Origin: an uncultured Lachnospiraceae bacterium
Lineage (GTDB): Bacteria > Bacillota > Clostridia > Lachnospirales > Lachnospiraceae
DNA length: 64,000 nucleotides
Direction: 5' to 3'
NCBI GenBank assembly: GCA_910584585.1
Contig: CAJUBP010000020.1
Location: 881-64,880 of the forward strand
Shown here one piece after another: positions 6,933-55,051 of this stretch. Under the pieces are notes generated by a model, which was not told the origin of the DNA, did not search any database, and saw only the letters and a list, made by a program, of their open reading frames with translations. Both the position numbers and the translations under genes were made by a program. The number at the start of each line of letters is the position of its first letter. Position 1 is the first letter of the stretch.

Positions 6933-7697
6933 TTAAAATCCTTCTTTTTTCAGGAATGAAACAAGTGCGTCTACGGCTTCTTCGTTGTCGCCTTCCACGA
7001 TTTCCTGACGGCGTTCCTGCTGCTGGGGCGCAAGCTGTTCTGCTGTGCTGGCAGAAGGCGTGATTTCCGCGTCAATGGTAAGTACGTTCACAGGTTTCTT
7101 GCCTGCTTTCATAATTTCACGCATGCTGGGAACGGCCGGCACGTTGATTTCAGAGGAAACGGAGAGTACGGCGGGAAGAGGAACTTCCAGCACTTCCACT
7201 TCTTCTTCCAGGGTACGTTCCACTTCCAGGCTGCTGTCGGAGGCGATTTTAATGCCGGTGACATTGTTGACAACGGGTACGCCTAAGAGAGTTCCCGCCT
7301 GAATACCCACTTCCTGAAGGTACAGGTCGCTGGAGCCTGCGCCGCAGAGCACCACATCATAGGAATCCATGGCTTTTACTGCGCCTGCAATGGCTTTTGC
7401 CGTCTGTAAGGAATCGGAGAAGTCGTGGCTGTCGTCCATTACGAGGTTCAATTCATCGGCGCCTCTGGATAAAATATCTTTACGGATTTTGGAATTTTCC
7501 AGATAAGCGCTGGAACCGATGGAGAGAGCAGTCATTGTTCCGCTGCTTTCTGCTGCCAGTTTCTTGCCGCTCTCTAATGCGTTTAAGTCATACTGGCTGA
7601 TTTTCAGTGACGCGTCTGCCATTGCAAGAGTCCGGTCTGGCAGAACTGTAATTTCTTCTTCGTTTGGAACGATTTTACAACATGCAATGATTTTCAT
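6933..7697 (-). CDS. fixA: FixA-like electron transfer flavoprotein beta subunit
   Basis: Start moved to ATG 7697 (MKIIACCKIVPNEEEI), preceded by GGAAAGGAAG. KISQYDLNA, LCGAGSSDLY and PLPAVLSV resemble recalled E. coli FixA. Confidence 0.8.
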   Translation of the reverse strand: MKIIACCKIVPNEEEITVLPDRTLAMADASLKISQYDLNALESGKKLAAESSGTMTALSIGSSAYLENSKIRKDILSRGADELNLVMDDSHDFSDSLQTAKAIAGAVKAMDSYDVVLCGAGSSDLYLQEVGIQAGTLLGVPVVNNVTGIKIASDSSLEVERTLEEEVEVLEVPLPAVLSVSSEINVPAVPSMREIMKAGKKPVNVLTIDAEITPSASTAEQLAPQQQERRQEIVEGDNEEAVDALVSFLKKEGF

Positions 7698-45514: not shown

Positions 45515-46483
45515 ATGAATATAGCAGAAATCGCGAAATTGGCAGGAGTGTCCAGCGCAGCCGTTTCCAGGTATTTTAACAATGGATATATTTCAGAAGA
45601 GAAACGGGAGGCGATCCGAAAAGTTGTGGAAGAAACCGGATACCGGCCCTCCCTGCAGGCCCAGACGCTGCGGACAAAGAAAACCAGAATGGTGGGCGTG
45701 ATTGTGCCCAAGATTGCTTCCGCTTCCATTGGAAGGATTGTGGAAGGGATTTTGTCGGTGCTGAATGAAACCGGATACCAGACCCTCTTGGCAGTGACCC
45801 AGAATGATCCGAAGAAAGAACTGGAGTACTTGTCGGCTTTTAATGATAAGCAGGTGGACGGGGTAATTCTGGCGGCAACGATATTCAGTCCGGAGCATAA
45901 ACGGCTGCTGAAAGAGTTCCCTGTTCCAGTTGTGATTGTGGGGCAGCAGCTTGGCGGGCATTACTGCGTGTTCCATGATGATTATCACGCGGCCTATGAT
46001 CTGACCAGATTGATTTTGGAAAAAGGAAGAAAGAAACTTGGCTATATCGGAGCTGTTCAGAAGGACAAGGCGGTAGGGGCAGAGAGGTACCGGGGCTTTC
46101 GGGACGCGGTGGAGGAAGCGGGGCTTGAGAGCCTTGCGGAAAATTTTGTCATCGCTTCCTTTACGGTTGCTTCCGGATACGAAAAGGCAGGAGAATTGCT
46201 GAAAAAGAGCGGAAAGCTGGATGGAATTTTGTGTGCCACTGATACAATGGCCGCAGGCGCCATGCAGTATTTGCGGGAACATCAGATTCGGGTTCCGGAG
46301 GAGATTCTTGTGGCGGGACACGGGGATTCTGAAATGGCAAGGATTACGGATCCGCCGCTGCTGACCGTGCATTATTCCTATGAAAAAAGCGGGGAACTGG
46401 CGGCCCGGATGCTGCTGGATGTGCTGGCAGACAGGGAGACGGCGGTGAAGGAGATGAAACTGGGGTATTATATTGTGGAGTAA
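45515..46483 (+). CDS. LacI-family transcriptional regulator
   Basis: HTH MNIAEIAKLAGVSSAAVSRYFN plus a sugar-binding core. Confidence 0.85.
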   Translation: MNIAEIAKLAGVSSAAVSRYFNNGYISEEKREAIRKVVEETGYRPSLQAQTLRTKKTRMVGVIVPKIASASIGRIVEGILSVLNETGYQTLLAVTQNDPKKELEYLSAFNDKQVDGVILAATIFSPEHKRLLKEFPVPVVIVGQQLGGHYCVFHDDYHAAYDLTRLILEKGRKKLGYIGAVQKDKAVGAERYRGFRDAVEEAGLESLAENFVIASFTVASGYEKAGELLKKSGKLDGILCATDTMAAGAMQYLREHQIRVPEEILVAGHGDSEMARITDPPLLTVHYSYEKSGELAARMLLDVLADRETAVKEMKLGYYIVE

Positions 46484-47045: not shown

Positions 47046-47204
47046 ATGGACAAGTATGTTTGCGAACCCTGCGGATATGTATATGATCCGGAAGTCGGCG
47101 ATCCGGATAACGGAATCGCTCCCGGAACCGCGTTTGAGGATTTGCCGGAGGATTGGGTATGTCCCCTGTGCGGAATGGGAAAAGAAGTATTTGCGAAAGA
47201 ATAA
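47046..47204 (+). CDS. Rubredoxin (52 aa, not in the ORF track)
   Basis: [52 protein letters not shown]. Two CxxCG knuckles. RBS GGAGG. Confidence 0.9.
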
Positions 47205-47216
47205 TTTAGTGTGATA

Positions 47217-47264
47217 AAAACGCCCTGGAAACAGCATGTGCATGTTATTTCCAGGGCGTTTTTA
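47217..47264 (+). terminator. Intrinsic terminator
   Basis: AAAACGCCCTGGAAA...TTTCCAGGGCGTTTTT. Confidence 0.8.
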
Positions 47265-47343: not shown

Positions 47344-47372
47344 TTGCAATTTTTCGGGGGGGGGGGTATAAT
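47344..47372 (+). promoter_or_regulatory. Promoter with an 11-G homopolymer in the -35/-10 spacer (17-bp spacer)
   Basis: TTGCAA-TTTTTC-G11-TATAAT. Confidence 0.65.
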
Positions 47373-47447
47373 AAAAAGAGAAGTGCAGCCAAAAACGATT
47401 GCCAACAGACAGCGGCAGAGCTGATCTGAACACACAGGAGGGAATTT

Positions 47448-50400
47448 ATGAGGAGAAAGTATTTATCATTGATTCTGGCGGCAGTGATATCACTGGGCCA
47501 GATTGCGGGGACTGGACAGTTGGTCCAGGCGTCGGAAGTTTCTGGAGAAATTGGGCAGGAGGTTCTGGAAGGGACGCAGCCGGAAACAGGAGAAGAAACC
47601 GGGCAGCAGCAGCCGACAGAGACAATGGGAGAAATGGGACAGGAATCGGGGAATTTGTCGGGAGAAGGAGCAGAACAACAGCCTGGAGGAACATTGCCGC
47701 CGTCAGGTACAGAGCAGGGAAATTATACACCAAATTTTTATGTGTCAGATGAATTCAGATGGCTGCCTGGTGAAGAAATAACGATTTACAAAGTGGGAAG
47801 CGGCAATTGGAATGGGGAAAATGGCACAACCATACCAATGGAAATTGCAGAAGTCGTAAGCGCGGATTCTGAGGTTGTCTCTGTAGAAAACAATGAAGAA
47901 TTGGGCGGATGGATTCTGAGAGCGAAAGGATTTGGCGAAACGACAGTTACTGTTACAGGCAAAGCTTTACAGGATGTGTCAGGGGATAATGCGTCAGAAG
48001 CGCCGGAAAAACAAATTCGTGTGATTGTCAGCGACAAAACATATGGTTTGGTGGTGGAGGGAATGACTCAGAACGCGCTGCCGGGAGCAGAAGTCAATTT
48101 GACAGCAAAAGTTACTGGCAGGGATATGAACTGGCAGGAAGCGGATGTCTCAGACGCAGTTGTTGTCTGGACGGCTAAATCAGATGTTGAGGGAATTTTG
48201 GAACAATCTGAAAGAGGAAACAATTTTCAGATTCATATACCCGATATACCAGAGGGCAGGGATTCCTATTGGATTACAGTGACTGCGGAAGTAAAGAGAG
48301 GAGAAGAGACGGTTTCTTATCTCTGGCTTTCCACAATTTTTGTAAACAATTTATACTATAAGATGGAGATAGAAGCGCCGACAGAAATAGGAGAAATGTG
48401 GCCGGGAGAAACCAGAACTATAACTCCCGTGTTATACCGCTATGAGACAGGAAAAGAGCCGGAAGCGGAGCTAATGGCTATGTTTCAATTCGCTTATAGT
48501 GAGGAAAATATTGAGATACAAAAAGATGGAGTGCGTGTAGAGCCAGATGTGCCTCAGAGTAAAGGTGATTTTACCATAAAAAGGCTGAAGAACCGTATAG
48601 ATCCTATTCAGATATTCGCATATTTGGATGGGAATCAGCAAGGAGGCGAAGTTTTACAATTCCAATGGAAAGATTATAATGATATTTCAATAGAAGGCGG
48701 GTATTATGTGAATTTGTTTGTCGATGATGATAATCCTGAAGAGAGTGATACAGAGAAAGAATTTACTCTGGATACGTCAAAACTTGGCGGAGATTATGAA
48801 ATTGAATGGAAACTAGAAAATGATGAAGTATCTGTAGATCCGGGCATATATAAGATAAGCGGGGAAAAGGGAGAGAGTATCACAATTGACGCGAAAGCCT
48901 TGAGGGATGATTTGAAAAGGAAGCTTGGAGAAGATGATATATTTGAAGGCGGCTATTCTTGTCAACTTATTGTGGTTGTAAAAGCAGAAGGAACAGAACA
49001 GGCGATGAGAAGCTTGTCAATTGCTATTACAAAACCTGACAGTTGGATTAGTGAAAGAGAATATCTGACATTAAAAGGCACAGCGCTTACATATAAAGAT
49101 GGAAAAATCGCATGTTTTGTACAAAATAAGGATCATCCTACTGCTACGGAGCTTATGCTAGAACTGAAAGAAGTGAAAATCCTGGAAGAGACTCCGGAAG
49201 TTAAGAATACAAAAGTATTTACGGTAAAGAAGAATGGGGAAGATATTCTTCTGGTTGCTGAAAATTATGGAGAGGCTACCATAGAGTACAGGGTTGCTTA
49301 TGGCGGAAGAGAAAAGGTATTTACCATTGATAAAGCTGTTGTAAAAGACAAATATGAATTCAGCGCATTCAGCAGCACAGGCACCACCCATCTTCTGCCG
49401 GGCGCGGAATTGAAAATGGAAACAGAAGTCTGGCATGGATTTTATAATGAAAATGCTGGGAAAAAAGAATGGGAGAAACTGGATCCCGGAAAATATACGA
49501 TTAAGTATACCGGCTATGATAAAAATCTTATTTCAGTAGAAGCGGACGGAACGGTGAAAGCAATTGGTGAAAATGGATATTCAGGTCTGGGTGTTTTCTG
49601 TACAATTCCAATAGAGGGAGAGGAAGATGATGAGTATGTGGATGAAGTTGAAATTCAGGTAAGTGACAGCTATGCACAGGCATTTGCGGAAGAAATTTTT
49701 GCAGCTCCGGGAGAAACCGTTGATTATTTGACGTTAAGCTGGAAAAGTTTCGATTTGGAACATAAAAACGGCATGGAGGTGGAAGGCAACTTTGCCTATC
49801 AATTTTTAGAGAAAAAGAAAAAAGGGGTTAGTTTTAATGAAGCAAAAACTGCTTTTACAGTAAATGATGATGCAATAGAAGGAAGTAAGATACGAATTAG
49901 GATGCGTGCGGAAAAAGAAAATTCGTATGGACAAAAGAATTACGCGCTTGGTACAGTCACCGTGAATATCATCGGCAGCAATCCCTGCAGCCACAATTTC
50001 ATCCAGAAATCCTTAAAACCGGCCACCTGTACGGAGCCAGGAATCAGGACGTTGGAATGTAGTATATGCCATGCTGCCACAAAGACAGAAACCATTCCGG
50101 CAGCCGGCCACAAAGCAGGAGGTTTTACAACCGTAAAAGAGGCCACCTGTACAGAAGCGGGCTCACAACAACAGAAATGTACCGTATGCGGTAAGGTAAT
50201 GCACACAAAAGATCTCTCCAAAACAGGACATTCCTTTGGAAACTGGGAAGAAACAGCGAAACCCACCGCTCTTAAGCAGGGCACAGAAACCAGAACCTGC
50301 AAGACCTGTAAGGCGGCAGAAACCAGGGAAACCGATAAGCTGAAAGCGACGATCAAACTGAATGTGAAGAAAATTCCCTTACAGGTAAAGAAATCCACCA

Positions 50401-50852
50401 CAGCCGTGAAGGTTGTTTCCATGACAGAAGGCGACGGAATTAAGTCCTGGAAGAGCAGTAATCTAAAGGTAGCCACTGTAACTTCCAAAGGAAAAATAAC
50501 AGGCAAGAAGGCGGGCAGCGCAAAAATCACCGTAACATTAAAGAGCGGAATTTCAGCCTCAGTGACAGTAAAAGTGCAGAAAAAGGCCGTGACTACAACG
50601 AAATTATCAGTGACTGGAAACTCTGTAAAGAAGAATAAACTTACCTTGAAGAAAGGAAAAAGCGTGACATTGATTGCGGTAAAAACGCCGGTCACAAGCC
50701 CGGAAAAAATCACCTATCAGTCTTCTAATAAAAAGGTAGCCGCAGTAACCAGCAAAGGAAAAGTCACCGGGAAAAAGCCGGGGAAAGCAAAAATTACCGT
50801 AAAATCCGGCAAGAAGAAAGTGACAATCAGCGTAACCGTGAAGAAGAAATAG
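47448..50852 (+). CDS. Large secreted surface protein with Cys-rich CTE.G...C..C modules and C-terminal Big_2-like Ig domains
   Basis: 1134 aa. Signal peptide MRRKYLSLILAAVISLGQIAGTGQLVQA. Repeats of VKV.S....I.SWKSSN.KVA.VTSKGKITGKKAG.AKITV. Lys-rich C-terminus with no LPXTG. Confidence 0.8.
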   Translation: MRRKYLSLILAAVISLGQIAGTGQLVQASEVSGEIGQEVLEGTQPETGEETGQQQPTETMGEMGQESGNLSGEGAEQQPGGTLPPSGTEQGNYTPNFYVSDEFRWLPGEEITIYKVGSGNWNGENGTTIPMEIAEVVSADSEVVSVENNEELGGWILRAKGFGETTVTVTGKALQDVSGDNASEAPEKQIRVIVSDKTYGLVVEGMTQNALPGAEVNLTAKVTGRDMNWQEADVSDAVVVWTAKSDVEGILEQSERGNNFQIHIPDIPEGRDSYWITVTAEVKRGEETVSYLWLSTIFVNNLYYKMEIEAPTEIGEMWPGETRTITPVLYRYETGKEPEAELMAMFQFAYSEENIEIQKDGVRVEPDVPQSKGDFTIKRLKNRIDPIQIFAYLDGNQQGGEVLQFQWKDYNDISIEGGYYVNLFVDDDNPEESDTEKEFTLDTSKLGGDYEIEWKLENDEVSVDPGIYKISGEKGESITIDAKALRDDLKRKLGEDDIFEGGYSCQLIVVVKAEGTEQAMRSLSIAITKPDSWISEREYLTLKGTALTYKDGKIACFVQNKDHPTATELMLELKEVKILEETPEVKNTKVFTVKKNGEDILLVAENYGEATIEYRVAYGGREKVFTIDKAVVKDKYEFSAFSSTGTTHLLPGAELKMETEVWHGFYNENAGKKEWEKLDPGKYTIKYTGYDKNLISVEADGTVKAIGENGYSGLGVFCTIPIEGEEDDEYVDEVEIQVSDSYAQAFAEEIFAAPGETVDYLTLSWKSFDLEHKNGMEVEGNFAYQFLEKKKKGVSFNEAKTAFTVNDDAIEGSKIRIRMRAEKENSYGQKNYALGTVTVNIIGSNPCSHNFIQKSLKPATCTEPGIRTLECSICHAATKTETIPAAGHKAGGFTTVKEATCTEAGSQQQKCTVCGKVMHTKDLSKTGHSFGNWEETAKPTALKQGTETRTCKTCKAAETRETDKLKATIKLNVKKIPLQVKKSTTAVKVVSMTEGDGIKSWKSSNLKVATVTSKGKITGKKAGSAKITVTLKSGISASVTVKVQKKAVTTTKLSVTGNSVKKNKLTLKKGKSVTLIAVKTPVTSPEKITYQSSNKKVAAVTSKGKVTGKKPGKAKITVKSGKKKVTISVTVKKK

Positions 50853-50922: not shown

Positions 50923-51232
50923 TTGTAACTATAGCGGCAAAGCGCCCACAAGAGAGTTCCTTCTGTCTTTCGATACATAGGAAATGAACTGCCGTGCGAA
51001 ACGCCTGTTATCATGGAGCAGGCACATGACAAGTCTGTGCAAAAGGAATCCCTGAGGAAAAAGATGAATGCATTCATGGAGCAGGCGGTAAGGAAAAAGG
51101 CCGGGGAAAGAAAACAGGGGAAATTGAGGAAACAGTGTAAAAATAAAAAATGCCAATTGATTATAGAGGAATTTCAAGGTATAATACCGTTAAATATGAT
51201 ATTGCCCGCAAATAAGCGAAAGGAGGGCGGTT

Positions 51233-52213
51233 ATGGACACGGAGATAAAAAGAGCAATCAACGCGGCAGATATGGACGCACAGTATGATGAAAAGGCAAA
51301 GCGTCTGCTGGGGAATAAAATCATTCTTGCGCATATTTTGGCAAAGACAGTGGAGGAGTTCCGAGGAATGGATCCGGAGGATGTTGCGCCATATATTGAA
51401 GGAGAACCATTCATCAGCGCAGCGCCGGTTGAGCCGGGACAGACCAATGCGTTAAAAGGAAAAACCGGTCAGCGGATTGTGGGGCTGAACACGGAAAATT
51501 CGGAAATCAATGAAGGGCTTGTAAGGTTTGACATTGTCTTTTATGTACGGGTGAAAGACGGAGTTTCACAGATTATCGTGAACCTGGAGGCGCAGAAGAA
51601 CATTCCTTCAGGGTACCATATACGGAATAGGGCGGTGTTTTATGTGAGCAGGCTGATTTCATCCCAGAAAGAGAGGGATTTTGTAAAAACAAATTATGAC
51701 GACATAAAACCTGTATACAGCATCTGGATTTGTATGAACATGGAAGAAAACAGCATGGACTATGTGCATTTGACAAATGACAGTGTGCTGGGCTTTGGCC
51801 AGTGGGAAGGAGGGCTTGATCTGCTGAACATTGTGCTGATAGGAATAGCCAGTGAACTTCCGGAGCATAATGGCGAATATGAGCTGCACCGTCTGCTGAG
51901 CGCCCTGCTTTCCATAGAATTATCCACAGATGAAAAACTGGGGATTATGGAAAGAGAGTATAATATCCCGATAAATGATAAAATGAGAGAGGATGTGAAC
52001 GCTATGTGTAATTTGAGCCAGGGAATCAGGGAGAAAGGAAGAGCCGAGGGAAGAGCCGAGGGAAGAGCCGAGGGCAGAACAGAAAATGAAAAAAAAGTTA
52101 TTATAAATATGTACACGAATCATTTTACGTTAGAACAGATTGCGCTTGCTACAGGCAGGGGCATAGAGGATATCAAGGCTGTCATTGAGAAAAAAGAGCC
52201 TGAATTGGCATAA
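51233..52213 (+). CDS. Rpn/YhgA-like PD-(D/E)XK nuclease family putative transposase
   Basis: 326 aa. D...E.K core (RFDIVFY...VNLEAQKN) and a C-terminal EGRA repeats/helical tail typical of this family in Clostridia. Confidence 0.65.
   Translation: MDTEIKRAINAADMDAQYDEKAKRLLGNKIILAHILAKTVEEFRGMDPEDVAPYIEGEPFISAAPVEPGQTNALKGKTGQRIVGLNTENSEINEGLVRFDIVFYVRVKDGVSQIIVNLEAQKNIPSGYHIRNRAVFYVSRLISSQKERDFVKTNYDDIKPVYSIWICMNMEENSMDYVHLTNDSVLGFGQWEGGLDLLNIVLIGIASELPEHNGEYELHRLLSALLSIELSTDEKLGIMEREYNIPINDKMREDVNAMCNLSQGIREKGRAEGRAEGRAEGRTENEKKVIINMYTNHFTLEQIALATGRGIEDIKAVIEKKEPELA
52037..52072 (+). repeat. Three perfect 12-bp tandem repeats (GGAAGAGCCGAG) encoding (GRAE)3
   Basis: Direct reading. Confidence 0.9.
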
Positions 52214-52236
52214 TTTAAAAATTTTAATAGAAAAGA

Positions 52237-52356: not shown

Positions 52357-52382
52357 TTGAAATTTTTCGGGGGGGGTATAAT
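52357..52382 (+). promoter_or_regulatory. Paralogous promoter with an 8-G homopolymer (14-bp spacer, predicted inactive)
   Basis: TTGAAA-TTTTTC-G8-TATAAT. Confidence 0.6.
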
Positions 52383-52408
52383 GAAAGAGAGAAGTGTAAC
52401 ATGAAACT

Positions 52409-55051
52409 ATGGCAGGCATTGTGCAGTTCGTTTCTTTTGTGGAGGAAGGGACTGTTATAACAGAGGACGGCATTGAGAAGAAGGTAAGCAAAGACGGCTC
52501 TGTTACGCTGGAAGAAACAGAAAACGGATGGCTGCTGCGGGCGAACCGCGTTTACGGAAGCACGGAACTTTCCGTAACAGGCATGGCAGCAGGAGAGACT
52601 CCTGCATCACCGGATGAAGCTGTCCGAAAGGAAACAACGAAAGTCACAGTAAATGTCACAGATAAAACATATCATCTTGACGTTGGTTCTGAGACAGGAA
52701 TCAATCAGCTGCACCCAGGAGAAAGCATTGATTTGCGGGCGGAGTTTTATTTGGAATGCTGGAATGAAGAAGAACAGTACCATTATCAGGAAGAAGTCCA
52801 AAATGCAGAAATTATCTGGCGGGCGGAATCTGATCGAGAAGGCGTTGACCAATCAGAGAAAACAGGGAACAGTTATCATCTGGAAGCGCCGGACAGTGAG
52901 GAAGATTATGAAATCCATGTGAATGTCACAGCCAAAGCAGATGGGAAAGCAGCGGCGTCTTTGGGATATGACCTGTACGCGTCAGGGGAATTTTATGTGC
53001 TGGAACCCGGCAATCTGGAAGAAGCGTCAGAACTGTGGGCCGGGCAGACAACAGAAGCCGCGCCTCAGGTATATTTACATAAAAAAGGCGAGGGAGAAAA
53101 AGAAGTAAATAATGTCTCCTACAGGTTTGACTATAACCAGGAGAATTTTGAGATTCAAAAAGAAAATAACCCAGTAGGAAATGGAGAGCAGCAAACCGGC
53201 GGAACCTTTCAAATTAAAAAGCGGAATAATTTTGATGACAGGGTGCGGATCGAGGCGTTTCTGGATGGAGAGGAAGAGCCTTGCTGCGACAGGGAATGGT
53301 GGTTTCAGAGACAGGATTATGATGGGGAGCTTTCCCTGGAAGGCGGCAGAGAAGAATATTACAGCTGGATTTATGTAGATCAGGATGAAAGTGAAAATGA
53401 TGAAGAAGAAGCCAGAACCTTTGCCTTAAATATGGGGAAGATTCAGGGCAGTTATGATATTATATGGGAAATTGGTTTCGGCAACAGCGATGAGGAAGGC
53501 AATTTTGAGAAAACTGCTTCTGAAAATGTCTATACCACCTCAGAAGATAAGAAACAAATTACGATCAAGGGGAAAGAATTAAAGGAAGAGATAAGAGCCG
53601 GGCTGAATATGGCAGAAGATGACGGCAGTGATGTGGGATTCAATCTTCGCGCAATTGTCTGCGCAGGAGAAGGAGAAGAGCAGGCTCGCAGAGATATGTG
53701 GATTGAAATCCGCAGGCCTCGCTATGAATTGGACTATGCGGATGAGGCTATGCTGTCCGTGGATCGTGGAATTGTAAAGGCGAAGGAGCAGCTTGGCGAT
53801 ACGGGATTCCATATAGTGGTTTCCGTACCTCAGACAGGAGGAGATCCTTATGAACGTTGGGAATGGATTCCTGTTTTTATCGCGGAACGCTATTATCAGG
53901 TATCTGCCCAGGATATGACGGCGGCGCCCGGAGAGAAGATAGACGCCGTTCACTGGCGGTGGAACCGGTTTGATTTGGATCACAGAGACGGGCTCCTGGA
54001 GCCTGGAACAGGGACTTATCGGGTAGAAGAGACAGAATGGATTCAGGTGAATCCGGCAGGAACGGGATTTACCATAGACGCCAACGCGCCTGACGGAGAA
54101 AAAATAGAAGTTTGGCTGACAGCGGAAAAGCAAGAAGCGCAGGGAGAGCAGATCAGCGAAACCGGAAGCTTTATCTTGACCATATGTAATCATAATTTTG
54201 TCCAGAAATCCTTAACAGCGGCCACCTGCACAGAAGCGGGAACCAGGGTGTTAGAGTGCGATAAATGCCATACTGCCACGAAGACGGAAACTCTCCCGGC
54301 AGCCGGCCATAAACCGGGAAGTTTTACAACTATAAAAGCAGCCACCTGTACAGAAGCAGGCTCCCAGCAGCAGAAATGCACTGTATGCGGCAAGGTGATG
54401 AACACAAAAGATCTTCCCAAAACCGGACATTCTTTCGGGGACTGGAAAGAGACAGAAAAGCCCACCGCCCTTAAGCAGGGAACAGAAACCAGAACCTGCA
54501 AAACCTGCAATGCGGCGGAAACCAGGAAAACTGAGAAACTGAAAGCGACCATTAAACTGAATGTAAAGAAAATCCCCCTGCAGGTAAAGAAATCAACCAC
54601 AGCCGTGAAAGTTGTTTCCATGACAGAAGGAGACGATATCGCCTCCTGGAAGAGCAGCAATCCGAAGGTGGCAGCAGTAACTTCCAAGGGAAAAATAACA
54701 GGAAAGAAAGCAGGAACTGCCAAGATTACCGTAACCTTAAAGAGCGGTATTTCCGCTTCTGTGACTGTGAAAGTGCAGAAGAAGGCAGTGACTACAACGA
54801 AATTGTCTGTCACGGGGAAAGCTTTAAAGAAGAACAAGCTTACTTTGAAAAAGGGAAAGAGCGTAACGCTGACTGCCGTACGGACCCCTGTCACCAGCAC
54901 GGAGAAAATTACTTATAAATCTTCCAATAAAAAGATAGCCGCAGTAACCAGCAAAGGAAAAGTCACCGGGAAAAAGCCGGGGAAAGCAAAGATCACCGTG
55001 AAATCCGGCAAGAAGAAAGTGGCAATCAGCGTAACCGTAAAGAAGAAATAG
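52409..55051 (+). CDS. Paralog of the 47448 surface protein lacking the signal peptide and ~120 N-terminal residues. Possibly a pseudogene or silent copy.
   Basis: 880 aa. The last ~300 aa are ~90% identical by eye to the 47448 product. The N-terminus MAGIVQFVSFVEEG has no signal sequence. Confidence 0.65.
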   Translation: MAGIVQFVSFVEEGTVITEDGIEKKVSKDGSVTLEETENGWLLRANRVYGSTELSVTGMAAGETPASPDEAVRKETTKVTVNVTDKTYHLDVGSETGINQLHPGESIDLRAEFYLECWNEEEQYHYQEEVQNAEIIWRAESDREGVDQSEKTGNSYHLEAPDSEEDYEIHVNVTAKADGKAAASLGYDLYASGEFYVLEPGNLEEASELWAGQTTEAAPQVYLHKKGEGEKEVNNVSYRFDYNQENFEIQKENNPVGNGEQQTGGTFQIKKRNNFDDRVRIEAFLDGEEEPCCDREWWFQRQDYDGELSLEGGREEYYSWIYVDQDESENDEEEARTFALNMGKIQGSYDIIWEIGFGNSDEEGNFEKTASENVYTTSEDKKQITIKGKELKEEIRAGLNMAEDDGSDVGFNLRAIVCAGEGEEQARRDMWIEIRRPRYELDYADEAMLSVDRGIVKAKEQLGDTGFHIVVSVPQTGGDPYERWEWIPVFIAERYYQVSAQDMTAAPGEKIDAVHWRWNRFDLDHRDGLLEPGTGTYRVEETEWIQVNPAGTGFTIDANAPDGEKIEVWLTAEKQEAQGEQISETGSFILTICNHNFVQKSLTAATCTEAGTRVLECDKCHTATKTETLPAAGHKPGSFTTIKAATCTEAGSQQQKCTVCGKVMNTKDLPKTGHSFGDWKETEKPTALKQGTETRTCKTCNAAETRKTEKLKATIKLNVKKIPLQVKKSTTAVKVVSMTEGDDIASWKSSNPKVAAVTSKGKITGKKAGTAKITVTLKSGISASVTVKVQKKAVTTTKLSVTGKALKKNKLTLKKGKSVTLTAVRTPVTSTEKITYKSSNKKIAAVTSKGKVTGKKPGKAKITVKSGKKKVAISVTVKKK

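Follow-up and report, generated by a model that had tools for sequence, protein, structure and literature searches.

A run of guanines between the -35 and -10 hexamers of a gene for a predicted secreted Ig-domain protein, in an uncultured Lachnospiraceae bacterium, probably works as a slipped-strand switch of the porA type, in which the length of the promoter spacer would set expression in the manner of a phase switch or a rheostat. The DNA analysed is a stretch of 64,000 nucleotides (the window: positions 881 to 64,880 of the forward strand of contig CAJUBP010000020.1, assembly GCA_910584585.1), and coordinates refer to it unless another contig is named. As in porA-type switches, an uninterrupted homopolymer of at least 8 nt lies between recognisable hexamers, its length is polymorphic among near-identical genomes, and spacers of 16-18 bp can be attained as well as lengths outside that range.

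The promoter (P1) and its setting consist of the following elements:

47046-47204: rubredoxin gene upstream of P1, 52 aa, Pfam Rubredoxin
47215-47264, + strand: rubredoxin terminator hairpin, 24-nt arms with 92% complementarity, followed by a T run
47344-47349, + strand: -35 hexamer TTGCAA, agreeing with TTGACA at 4/6 positions; TTGMAA is invariant across four species
47350-47355, + strand: fixed part of the spacer, TTTTTC, the same in every orthologous and paralogous copy
47356-47366, + strand: hypervariable poly-G tract, G11 in the window; its length ranges over G8-G11 among the organism's other assemblies
47367-47372, + strand: -10 hexamer TATAAT, recognised by sequence, consensus scan and cross-species alignment
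47373-47447, + strand: leader of 75 nt, including the Shine-Dalgarno sequence AGGAGGG (47436-47442); the ATG follows at 47448
47448-50852, + strand: P1 gene, 1134 aa, with signal peptide and C-terminal Big_2 domains

Together, TTTTTC and G11 form a spacer of 17 bp, and the site at 47344 was also called by the consensus scan (10/12, spacer 17). Transcription would start near 47379, given the usual distance of ~7 nt to the -10 hexamer. From the rubredoxin terminator to the P1 gene, within an intergenic region of 243 nt, the same scan gave no second + strand promoter candidate. The terminator ends 80 nt upstream of the promoter and, since it insulates the latter from read-through, it is most unlikely that the tract is transcribed from upstream. 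The genes further upstream are a PTS/LacI unit, a DUF2325 gene and then the rubredoxin gene. In one assembly (ERR3199581, L076) the LacI-family gene is called as two ORFs (168 and 124 aa), with a G>T change at window position 46019 that is the sole substitution in 13.6 kb.

The P1 product begins with the signal peptide MRRKYLSLILAAVISLGQIAGTGQLVQA, followed by SE, and continues with a low-complexity Glu/Gln/Gly region, ~750 aa without family match, three Cys-rich repeats and a lysine-rich C-terminal Big_2 region; the N-terminal 850 aa are uncharacterised. In the PDB, the only proteins matched by sequence are intimin and a phage short tail fiber, in both cases through Ig-like domains, and no LPXTG, SLH or other wall anchor was recognised in the protein. 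Full-length homologs are few, all of them within Lachnospiraceae MAGs. The sequence supports a secreted Ig-domain protein. The preliminary description had spoken of a giant surface protein, secreted, Ig-like and adhesin-type, of 1134 aa; the length, the signal peptide and the Big_2 domains stand, while "giant" and "adhesin" go further than their basis, namely a signal peptide and Big_2/intimin-like Ig domains.

A second promoter of the same design (P2) is found downstream, in front of a truncated paralog:

51233-52213, + strand: gene of 326 aa between the paralogs P1 and P2, weakly Rpn/PDDEXK_2 nuclease-like
52357-52362, + strand: P2 -35 hexamer TTGAAA
52363-52368, + strand: TTTTTC
52369-52376, + strand: G8 tract
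52377-52382, + strand: P2 -10 hexamer TATAAT
52409-55051, + strand: P2 ORF, 880 codons, 5'-truncated paralog of P1

The two promoters can be aligned from ~10 nt 5' of the -35 to ~25 nt 3' of the -10 hexamer, and are thus paralogous. The P2 spacer measures 14 bp here, and its tract ranges over G8-G10 in other assemblies. Identity between the P2 protein and P1 is 64% in the C-terminal 467 aa and 32% in the remainder, and the alignment begins only at P1 residue 124. Its ATG lies 27 nt past the -10 hexamer and has neither a Shine-Dalgarno sequence before it nor a signal peptide after it: the P2 promoter and ~26 nt of leader (52383-52408) are fused to the equivalent of P1 codon 124. The nucleotides round this ATG align with the leader of a related species' ortholog, and therefore a deletion took the ribosome-binding site and start codon along with the signal peptide and N-terminal region. 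Because these were lost, P2 is probably not a working second copy.

The 880 codons of P2 are intact in every assembly and its promoter tract still varies. The gene is perhaps decaying into a pseudogene, or else a silent donor; together with the Rpn-like nuclease gene, this exportless copy might also donate sequence for recombination with P1. In one contig (L002, 5801-5806, equivalent to window 52377-52382) the P2 -10 hexamer TATAAT has become TATAAA, the sole substitution with respect to the window in 7.2 kb; the same contig carries the longest P2 tract, G10. On either side of the Rpn-like gene stands one arm of a 15-nt inverted repeat (51144-51158 and 52203-52217). A related species (L035) has a single gene copy in the same synteny (rubredoxin ... 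aminotransferase, NadA) without the Rpn-like insertion, and the Rpn-like gene may have had a part in the P1/P2 duplication.

The tract lengths were compared among assemblies of the same organism, which were found by exact look-up of the P1, P2 and rubredoxin proteins in public assemblies (NCBI, ENA and Logan). This gave 11 assemblies besides the window, all of them short-read metagenome assemblies, some of whose MAGs and ENA assemblies may come from the same runs and so be non-independent. The lengths are as follows, with the proviso that an Illumina consensus at 10 or more G's is possibly off by one:

Window: P1 G11, P2 G8
GCA_948660475.1: P1 G9, P2 G9
ERR3199694: P1 G9, P2 G10
ERR3199674: P1 G8, P2 G8
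GCA_948734935.1: P1 G10, P2 G8
ERR3199581: P1 G11, P2 G9
ERR3199597: P1 G10, P2 G10
ERR3199547: P1 G9 (P1 only)
GCA_948723175.1: P1 G9 (P1 only)
SRR17182826: P1 G10 (P1 only)
ERR3199634: P1 G8 (P1 only)
GCA_948474185.1: P2 G8 (P2 only)

Counting the window, the 11 P1 tracts comprise two G8, four G9, three G10 and two G11, and the eight P2 tracts four G8, two G9 and two G10. P1 spacers of 14, 15, 16 and 17 bp are thus seen, and P2 reaches 16 bp with G10 only. The seven assemblies that contain both tracts, window included, present seven distinct combinations of lengths, the two tracts varying independently.

Outside the tracts these assemblies are near-identical, with 0-4 substitutions over 6.5-21.6 kb and the tracts as sole indels. 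In blastn comparisons with the window, one contig (L073) has no substitution in 21.6 kb and differs in the two tracts only; another (L074) differs in the tracts alone over 17 kb, and a third (L075) in the P1 tract alone over 14 kb. ERR3199581 shows one substitution and the P2 tract in 13.6 kb, and a last contig (L077) four substitutions in 12.4 kb, with equal tract. Several internal controls are available in the shared 21.6 kb: no change of length is seen in the A8 at 52089, which lies 280 nt from the P2 tract, in any of four A7/T7 runs or in either of two G6 runs. Moreover, the upstream regions of two unrelated genes with ordinary promoters were identical in 15 assemblies. Since at least 6 tract changes at two sites are to be set against about six substitutions in ~15 kb, the mutation rate of a tract would be ~10^4 times the per-site substitution rate, as a rough lower bound drawn from these alignments.

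The tract is flanked by unique sequence on both sides in at least 11 other assemblies, and its existence as an assembly artefact is excluded by these unique flanks, seen in at least 12 assemblies when all are counted. The arrangement first described, TTGCAA-TTTTTC-G11-TATAAT with a 17-bp spacer at 47344-47372 and a paralogous TTGAAA-TTTTTC-G8-TATAAT with a 14-bp spacer at 52357, is confirmed by the sequence and by the alignment of the promoters, as is a tract conserved in position and differing in length, now G8-G11 at P1 and G8-G10 at P2 across assemblies. The candidate slipped-strand switch also gains support, the comparison revealing the tract as the most variable site of the locus rather than an invariant one. 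The spacer called "optimal" is indeed 17 bp with G11, but this is one state among several and the commonest, G9, gives 15 bp.

Two further observations concern the distribution of the locus. In a strain represented by a Logan contig (SRR28114020, L067, 1417-1552; flanks 98.4% identical), the rubredoxin terminator runs straight into sequence resembling the Cys-rich C-terminal third of the gene; this remnant is 83-86% identical to both P1 and P2, and the contig has neither the promoter nor the N-terminal two thirds. A scan of JGI metagenomes returned no copy of the P1/P2 locus, only other poly-G promoters.

Among runs of G or C in the 64-kb window, only the P1 and P2 tracts exceed 6 nt, the remaining runs of 6 being three G6 and one C6. 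Runs of at least 6 thus number 6, against ~26 expected from base frequencies; this is far below expectation and therefore the genome avoids such runs. For runs of at least 11, 0.04-0.08 are expected in the window. A G8 by itself is not rare under this naive model (1.9-3.3 expected), and the non-random part is that both long G runs occupy the same promoter frame, with the reservation that the P1 and P2 promoters, because paralogous, are not independent events.

The promoter core is also conserved in other species. The sequence AAAAnCCTTGMAATTTTTC-G9-TATAATG is invariant in three other Lachnospiraceae species (L035, whose protein is 64% identical to P1, and L032 and L008, genomes of the mouse catalogue MGBC), with flanks that have diverged beyond easy alignment. 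In at least 20 sequences from four species the G tract is uninterrupted, and such an uninterrupted run inside a conserved promoter core, maintained across species, argues for selection on the tract itself. Runs of G before T have been reported as hotspots of T-to-G change (PMC12344412). The first T of each -10 hexamer stands directly 3' of the G run (47366-47367 at P1, 52376-52377 at P2), that is, in a GnT context. GATAAT in place of the -10 hexamer was found in none of the at least 20 sequences, which is consistent with selection keeping the -10.

The L032 ortholog is frameshifted at an A8 run in the coding region (7400-7407), and the L008 ortholog at ~5845, where one nucleotide is missing from an N-terminal repeat. 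Pseudogene formation, misassembly or a further slippage site, this one coding, could each account for the shifts.

The tract might instead be a mutational hotspot without regulatory role, its length drifting neutrally and the gene being controlled elsewhere or hardly expressed. Such drift would agree with a P2 tract as variable as that of P1 in front of a gene without ribosome-binding site and signal peptide, with the predicted OFF length G9 being the commonest, and with the easy decay of the gene family, as in the L032 and L008 frameshifts and the L067 deletion. Indeed, because the equally variable P2 promoter drives an apparently crippled gene, tract variability alone is no proof of a useful switch. 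Under neutral drift, however, substitutions should break the G run, which is intact throughout the four species inside a conserved -35/TTTTTC/-10 block, and the tract lies exactly in a promoter spacer, within an intergenic region that offers no other promoter. Pure drift is therefore regarded as unlikely.

In the proposed porA-type switch, the G run would be a slippage-prone homopolymer on which the spacer length of a sigma-A (sigma-70-type) promoter depends. Replication slippage would add or drop single G's and so alter the distance and the rotational phasing of TTGCAA with respect to TATAAT. Spacers of sigma-70 promoters work best at 17 +/- 1 bp. With G11 the predicted spacer would be the 17-bp optimum, G10 and G12 (16 and 18 bp) would give reduced expression, and G9 and G8 (15 and 14 bp) would leave the promoter weak or off. 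A clonal population would then consist of cells making differing amounts of the secreted 1134-aa Ig-domain protein, from which selection by host antibody, phage or niche could enrich either state. We infer the use of this promoter, the setting of expression by the spacer, fast and reversible switching within a population, and the selective agent.

The lengths observed cover the predicted ON, intermediate and OFF states. A G at -14 provides a partial match to the extended -10 motif, and therefore "off" may be "low" and the device possibly a rheostat. The commonest length, G9 (4/11 at P1 and all three other species), corresponds to a 15-bp spacer, predicted to be weak or OFF; either a low or OFF state is the usual one in the gut, or the 17-bp rule is not exact here. 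A -35 hexamer with only four of the six consensus bases also speaks against the model.

Similar promoters were sought elsewhere with the pattern AATTTTTC-G(6 or more)-N(0-10)-TATAAT, in one genome per species; the resulting set is pattern-ascertained and not a survey. The scan returned 30 loci, ~20 of them pure-G, in Clostridia, with a TTGACA-like hexamer upstream, where calculation gives less than 1 pure-G match with at least 7 G's by chance. The distance from -35 to -10 at the scanned sites varies from 12 to 20 bp, with ~9/29 within 16-18 bp, a scatter to be expected of promoters sampled in different phases. The first genes downstream mostly encode signal peptides and include CHAP + ricin-lectin proteins (two), an fn3 protein, a Listeria-Bacteroides-repeat/Cu_amine_oxidN1 protein and a lipoprotein. 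In the isolate genome of Blautia sp. MSJ-19 (L016), two tandem paralogous secreted CHAP + ricin-lectin genes (1091 and 1207 aa) are involved:

L016, 3929-3951 and 7421-7443, + strand: promoters, each TTGACG-AA-AATTTTTC-G9-TATAAT, with a 19-bp spacer
L016, 242-3862 and 4082-7354, - strand: CHAP + ricin-lectin genes

The exact CHAP + ricin protein of this strain occurs in one contig only, and its abundant homologs (P0165 and P0090; 15 loci) have ordinary, homopolymer-free promoters and serve as a negative control only. In Sellimonas catena, the tract is G9 in a complete genome (L034, - strand, 1944-1968) versus G10 in a metagenome contig (L050, - strand, 573-598), the two differing by 3 mismatches and this single G indel in 2.2 kb; the downstream protein of 106 aa has neither family match nor signal peptide. 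Furthermore, viral contigs contain five TTGACA-N-G(8 or more)-TATAAT sites, all without TTTTTC, of which two are upstream of a prepilin-like gene:

IMG/VR L069, 9885-9915, and L072, 13061-13091: TTGACA-N9-G10-TATAAT, 19-bp spacer, upstream of a gene starting MKKHKHYQGFTIIEV

The start MKKHKHYQGFTIIEV looks like the N-terminus of a type IV prepilin or pseudopilin.

These sites bear on another explanation, in which TTTTTC-Gn is a protein-binding or structural element (one that spaces an activator site from the -10, as in Bordetella fim, or a rigid G·C tract for a regulator) and the tract merely tunes control by a factor. TTTTTC and the upstream AAAA are conserved as well as the hexamers are, and AATTTTTC-Gn-TATAAT appears in unrelated Clostridia promoters at 12-20 bp, which is awkward for a simple 17-bp rule. 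Nevertheless, nearly all such sites possess a recognisable TTGNNN -35 hexamer, the poly-G promoters of viral contigs do without TTTTTC, and no regulator gene is linked to the locus, the LacI gene being part of the upstream PTS operon. Control through a dedicated factor is thus considered quite improbable.

It could also be argued that the true tract is constant and only seems to vary because such a homopolymer is hard to sequence and assemble correctly. The indel error of Illumina sequencing grows with homopolymer length, the data are all short-read metagenome assemblies, and one contig (L036) begins 2 nt before the tract. Against this, the lengths span 3-4 nt (G8-G11), more than +/-1, P1 and P2 change independently of each other, with seven combinations seen, and the A8 run 280 nt away and the A7/T7/G6 runs are invariant in the same assemblies; the unrelated Sellimonas locus likewise differs between a complete isolate genome (G9) and a metagenome (G10). 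Given this range, the independence of the tracts and the stability of the control homopolymers, an artefact of length is very unlikely.

Other candidates were rejected. An inverton lacks its parts, since no inverted repeats flank the P1 or P2 promoter (the nearby ones are two terminator hairpins only) and no recombinase was found among the scanned neighbour genes. A riboswitch or leader RNA was discarded as the Rfam search of the P1 leader matched no family, the one hit being a chance-level SurA on the opposite strand (16.7 bits versus a gathering score of 100). A sporulation sigma-F -10 (GGnRAnAnTW), judged by eye, fails by a mismatch at the R position and the lack of GYATA at -35.

The porA-type switch can be compared with several known systems. 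In Neisseria meningitidis, van der Ende reportedly found in 1995 that porA is expressed highly with G11, at a medium level with G10 and not at all with G9. In this species, expression is modulated by SSRs located at promoters or close to them, and porA is phase variable (PMC5910500). P1 resembles porA (and also opc and fetA) in having the homopolymer in the -35/-10 spacer, there before a surface-protein gene and here before a putative one, in an optimum at G11 = 17 bp with graded loss when shorter, which is here a prediction, and in near-identical isolates that differ in tract length. Unlike P1, porA encodes an outer-membrane porin of a Gram-negative pathogen whose switching and expression have been measured, whereas the present gene belongs to an uncultured gut commensal of Gram-positive type. 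In Bordetella pertussis fim, a poly-C tract spaces the BvgA activator site from the -10 hexamer. There too a homopolymer lies upstream of the -10, and that of fim controls a surface structure; P1, in contrast to fim, has a -35 hexamer and no known activator.

Among Gram-positive commensals the closest analogue is PPA1880 of Cutibacterium (Propionibacterium) acnes, a secreted-protein gene with a G stretch in its putative promoter spacer: three strains have 11, 13 and 15 G, and secretion is confined to the one with G11 (PMC3224659). It differs from P1 in coming from skin Actinobacteria; its evidence is also correlative, and its authors could not exclude a coding tract (PMC3224659). Another Firmicute, Streptococcus pyogenes M28, has an intergenic tract of 9-11 T between Spy1336 and R28 (Spy1337) that is polymorphic in natural populations and determines which of three transcript levels is reached (PMC7098570). 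Here too a polymorphic homopolymer is found upstream of the gene, R28 being a surface adhesin; unlike the P1 tract, it changes how far apart two direct repeats lie, in a divergent regulatory region with a regulator gene in it, and is not a -35/-10 spacer. Finally, the invertons of gut bacteria, including C. difficile, would have the same role as the one proposed here, the stochastic ON/OFF control of surface and colonisation genes, but need flanking inverted repeats and a recombinase, neither of which was found at P1 or P2. A 2025 review of phase variation discusses Clostridioides for invertible elements only (PMC11868660).

No report was found in the literature on homopolymer or slipped-strand promoter switching in Lachnospiraceae, Clostridia or gut Firmicutes, which agrees with the initial view that the mechanism is not an established one for surface proteins of the Lachnospiraceae type. 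The mechanism is classical in pathogens and the host group is new for it; a specialist would not be surprised by the former, and the comparative evidence is unusually clean. In the literature found, phase variation of gut bacteria consists of DNA inversions (Bacteroides, C. difficile); for the dominant Firmicutes among the commensals, most of them uncultured, the searches gave nothing on repeat-based switching. It is quite possible, if still doubtful, that poly-G tracts in sigma-A promoter spacers constitute a widespread and undescribed class of contingency loci in gut Clostridia and phages, mostly before secreted or surface proteins, and a Firmicute counterpart of the Bacteroides invertons. 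The proposed members belong to Lachnospiraceae, Oscillospiraceae, Ruminococcus, Blautia, Sellimonas, Acetatifactor and their phages.

Such tracts are sites at which the consensus sequences of MAGs may legitimately disagree. Existing metagenomes already give the tract length, which could be set against metatranscriptomes, IgA coating or phage exposure. If the broader pattern is true, a simple motif scan would expose a hidden strain-level phenotypic heterogeneity in Lachnospiraceae and Oscillospiraceae.
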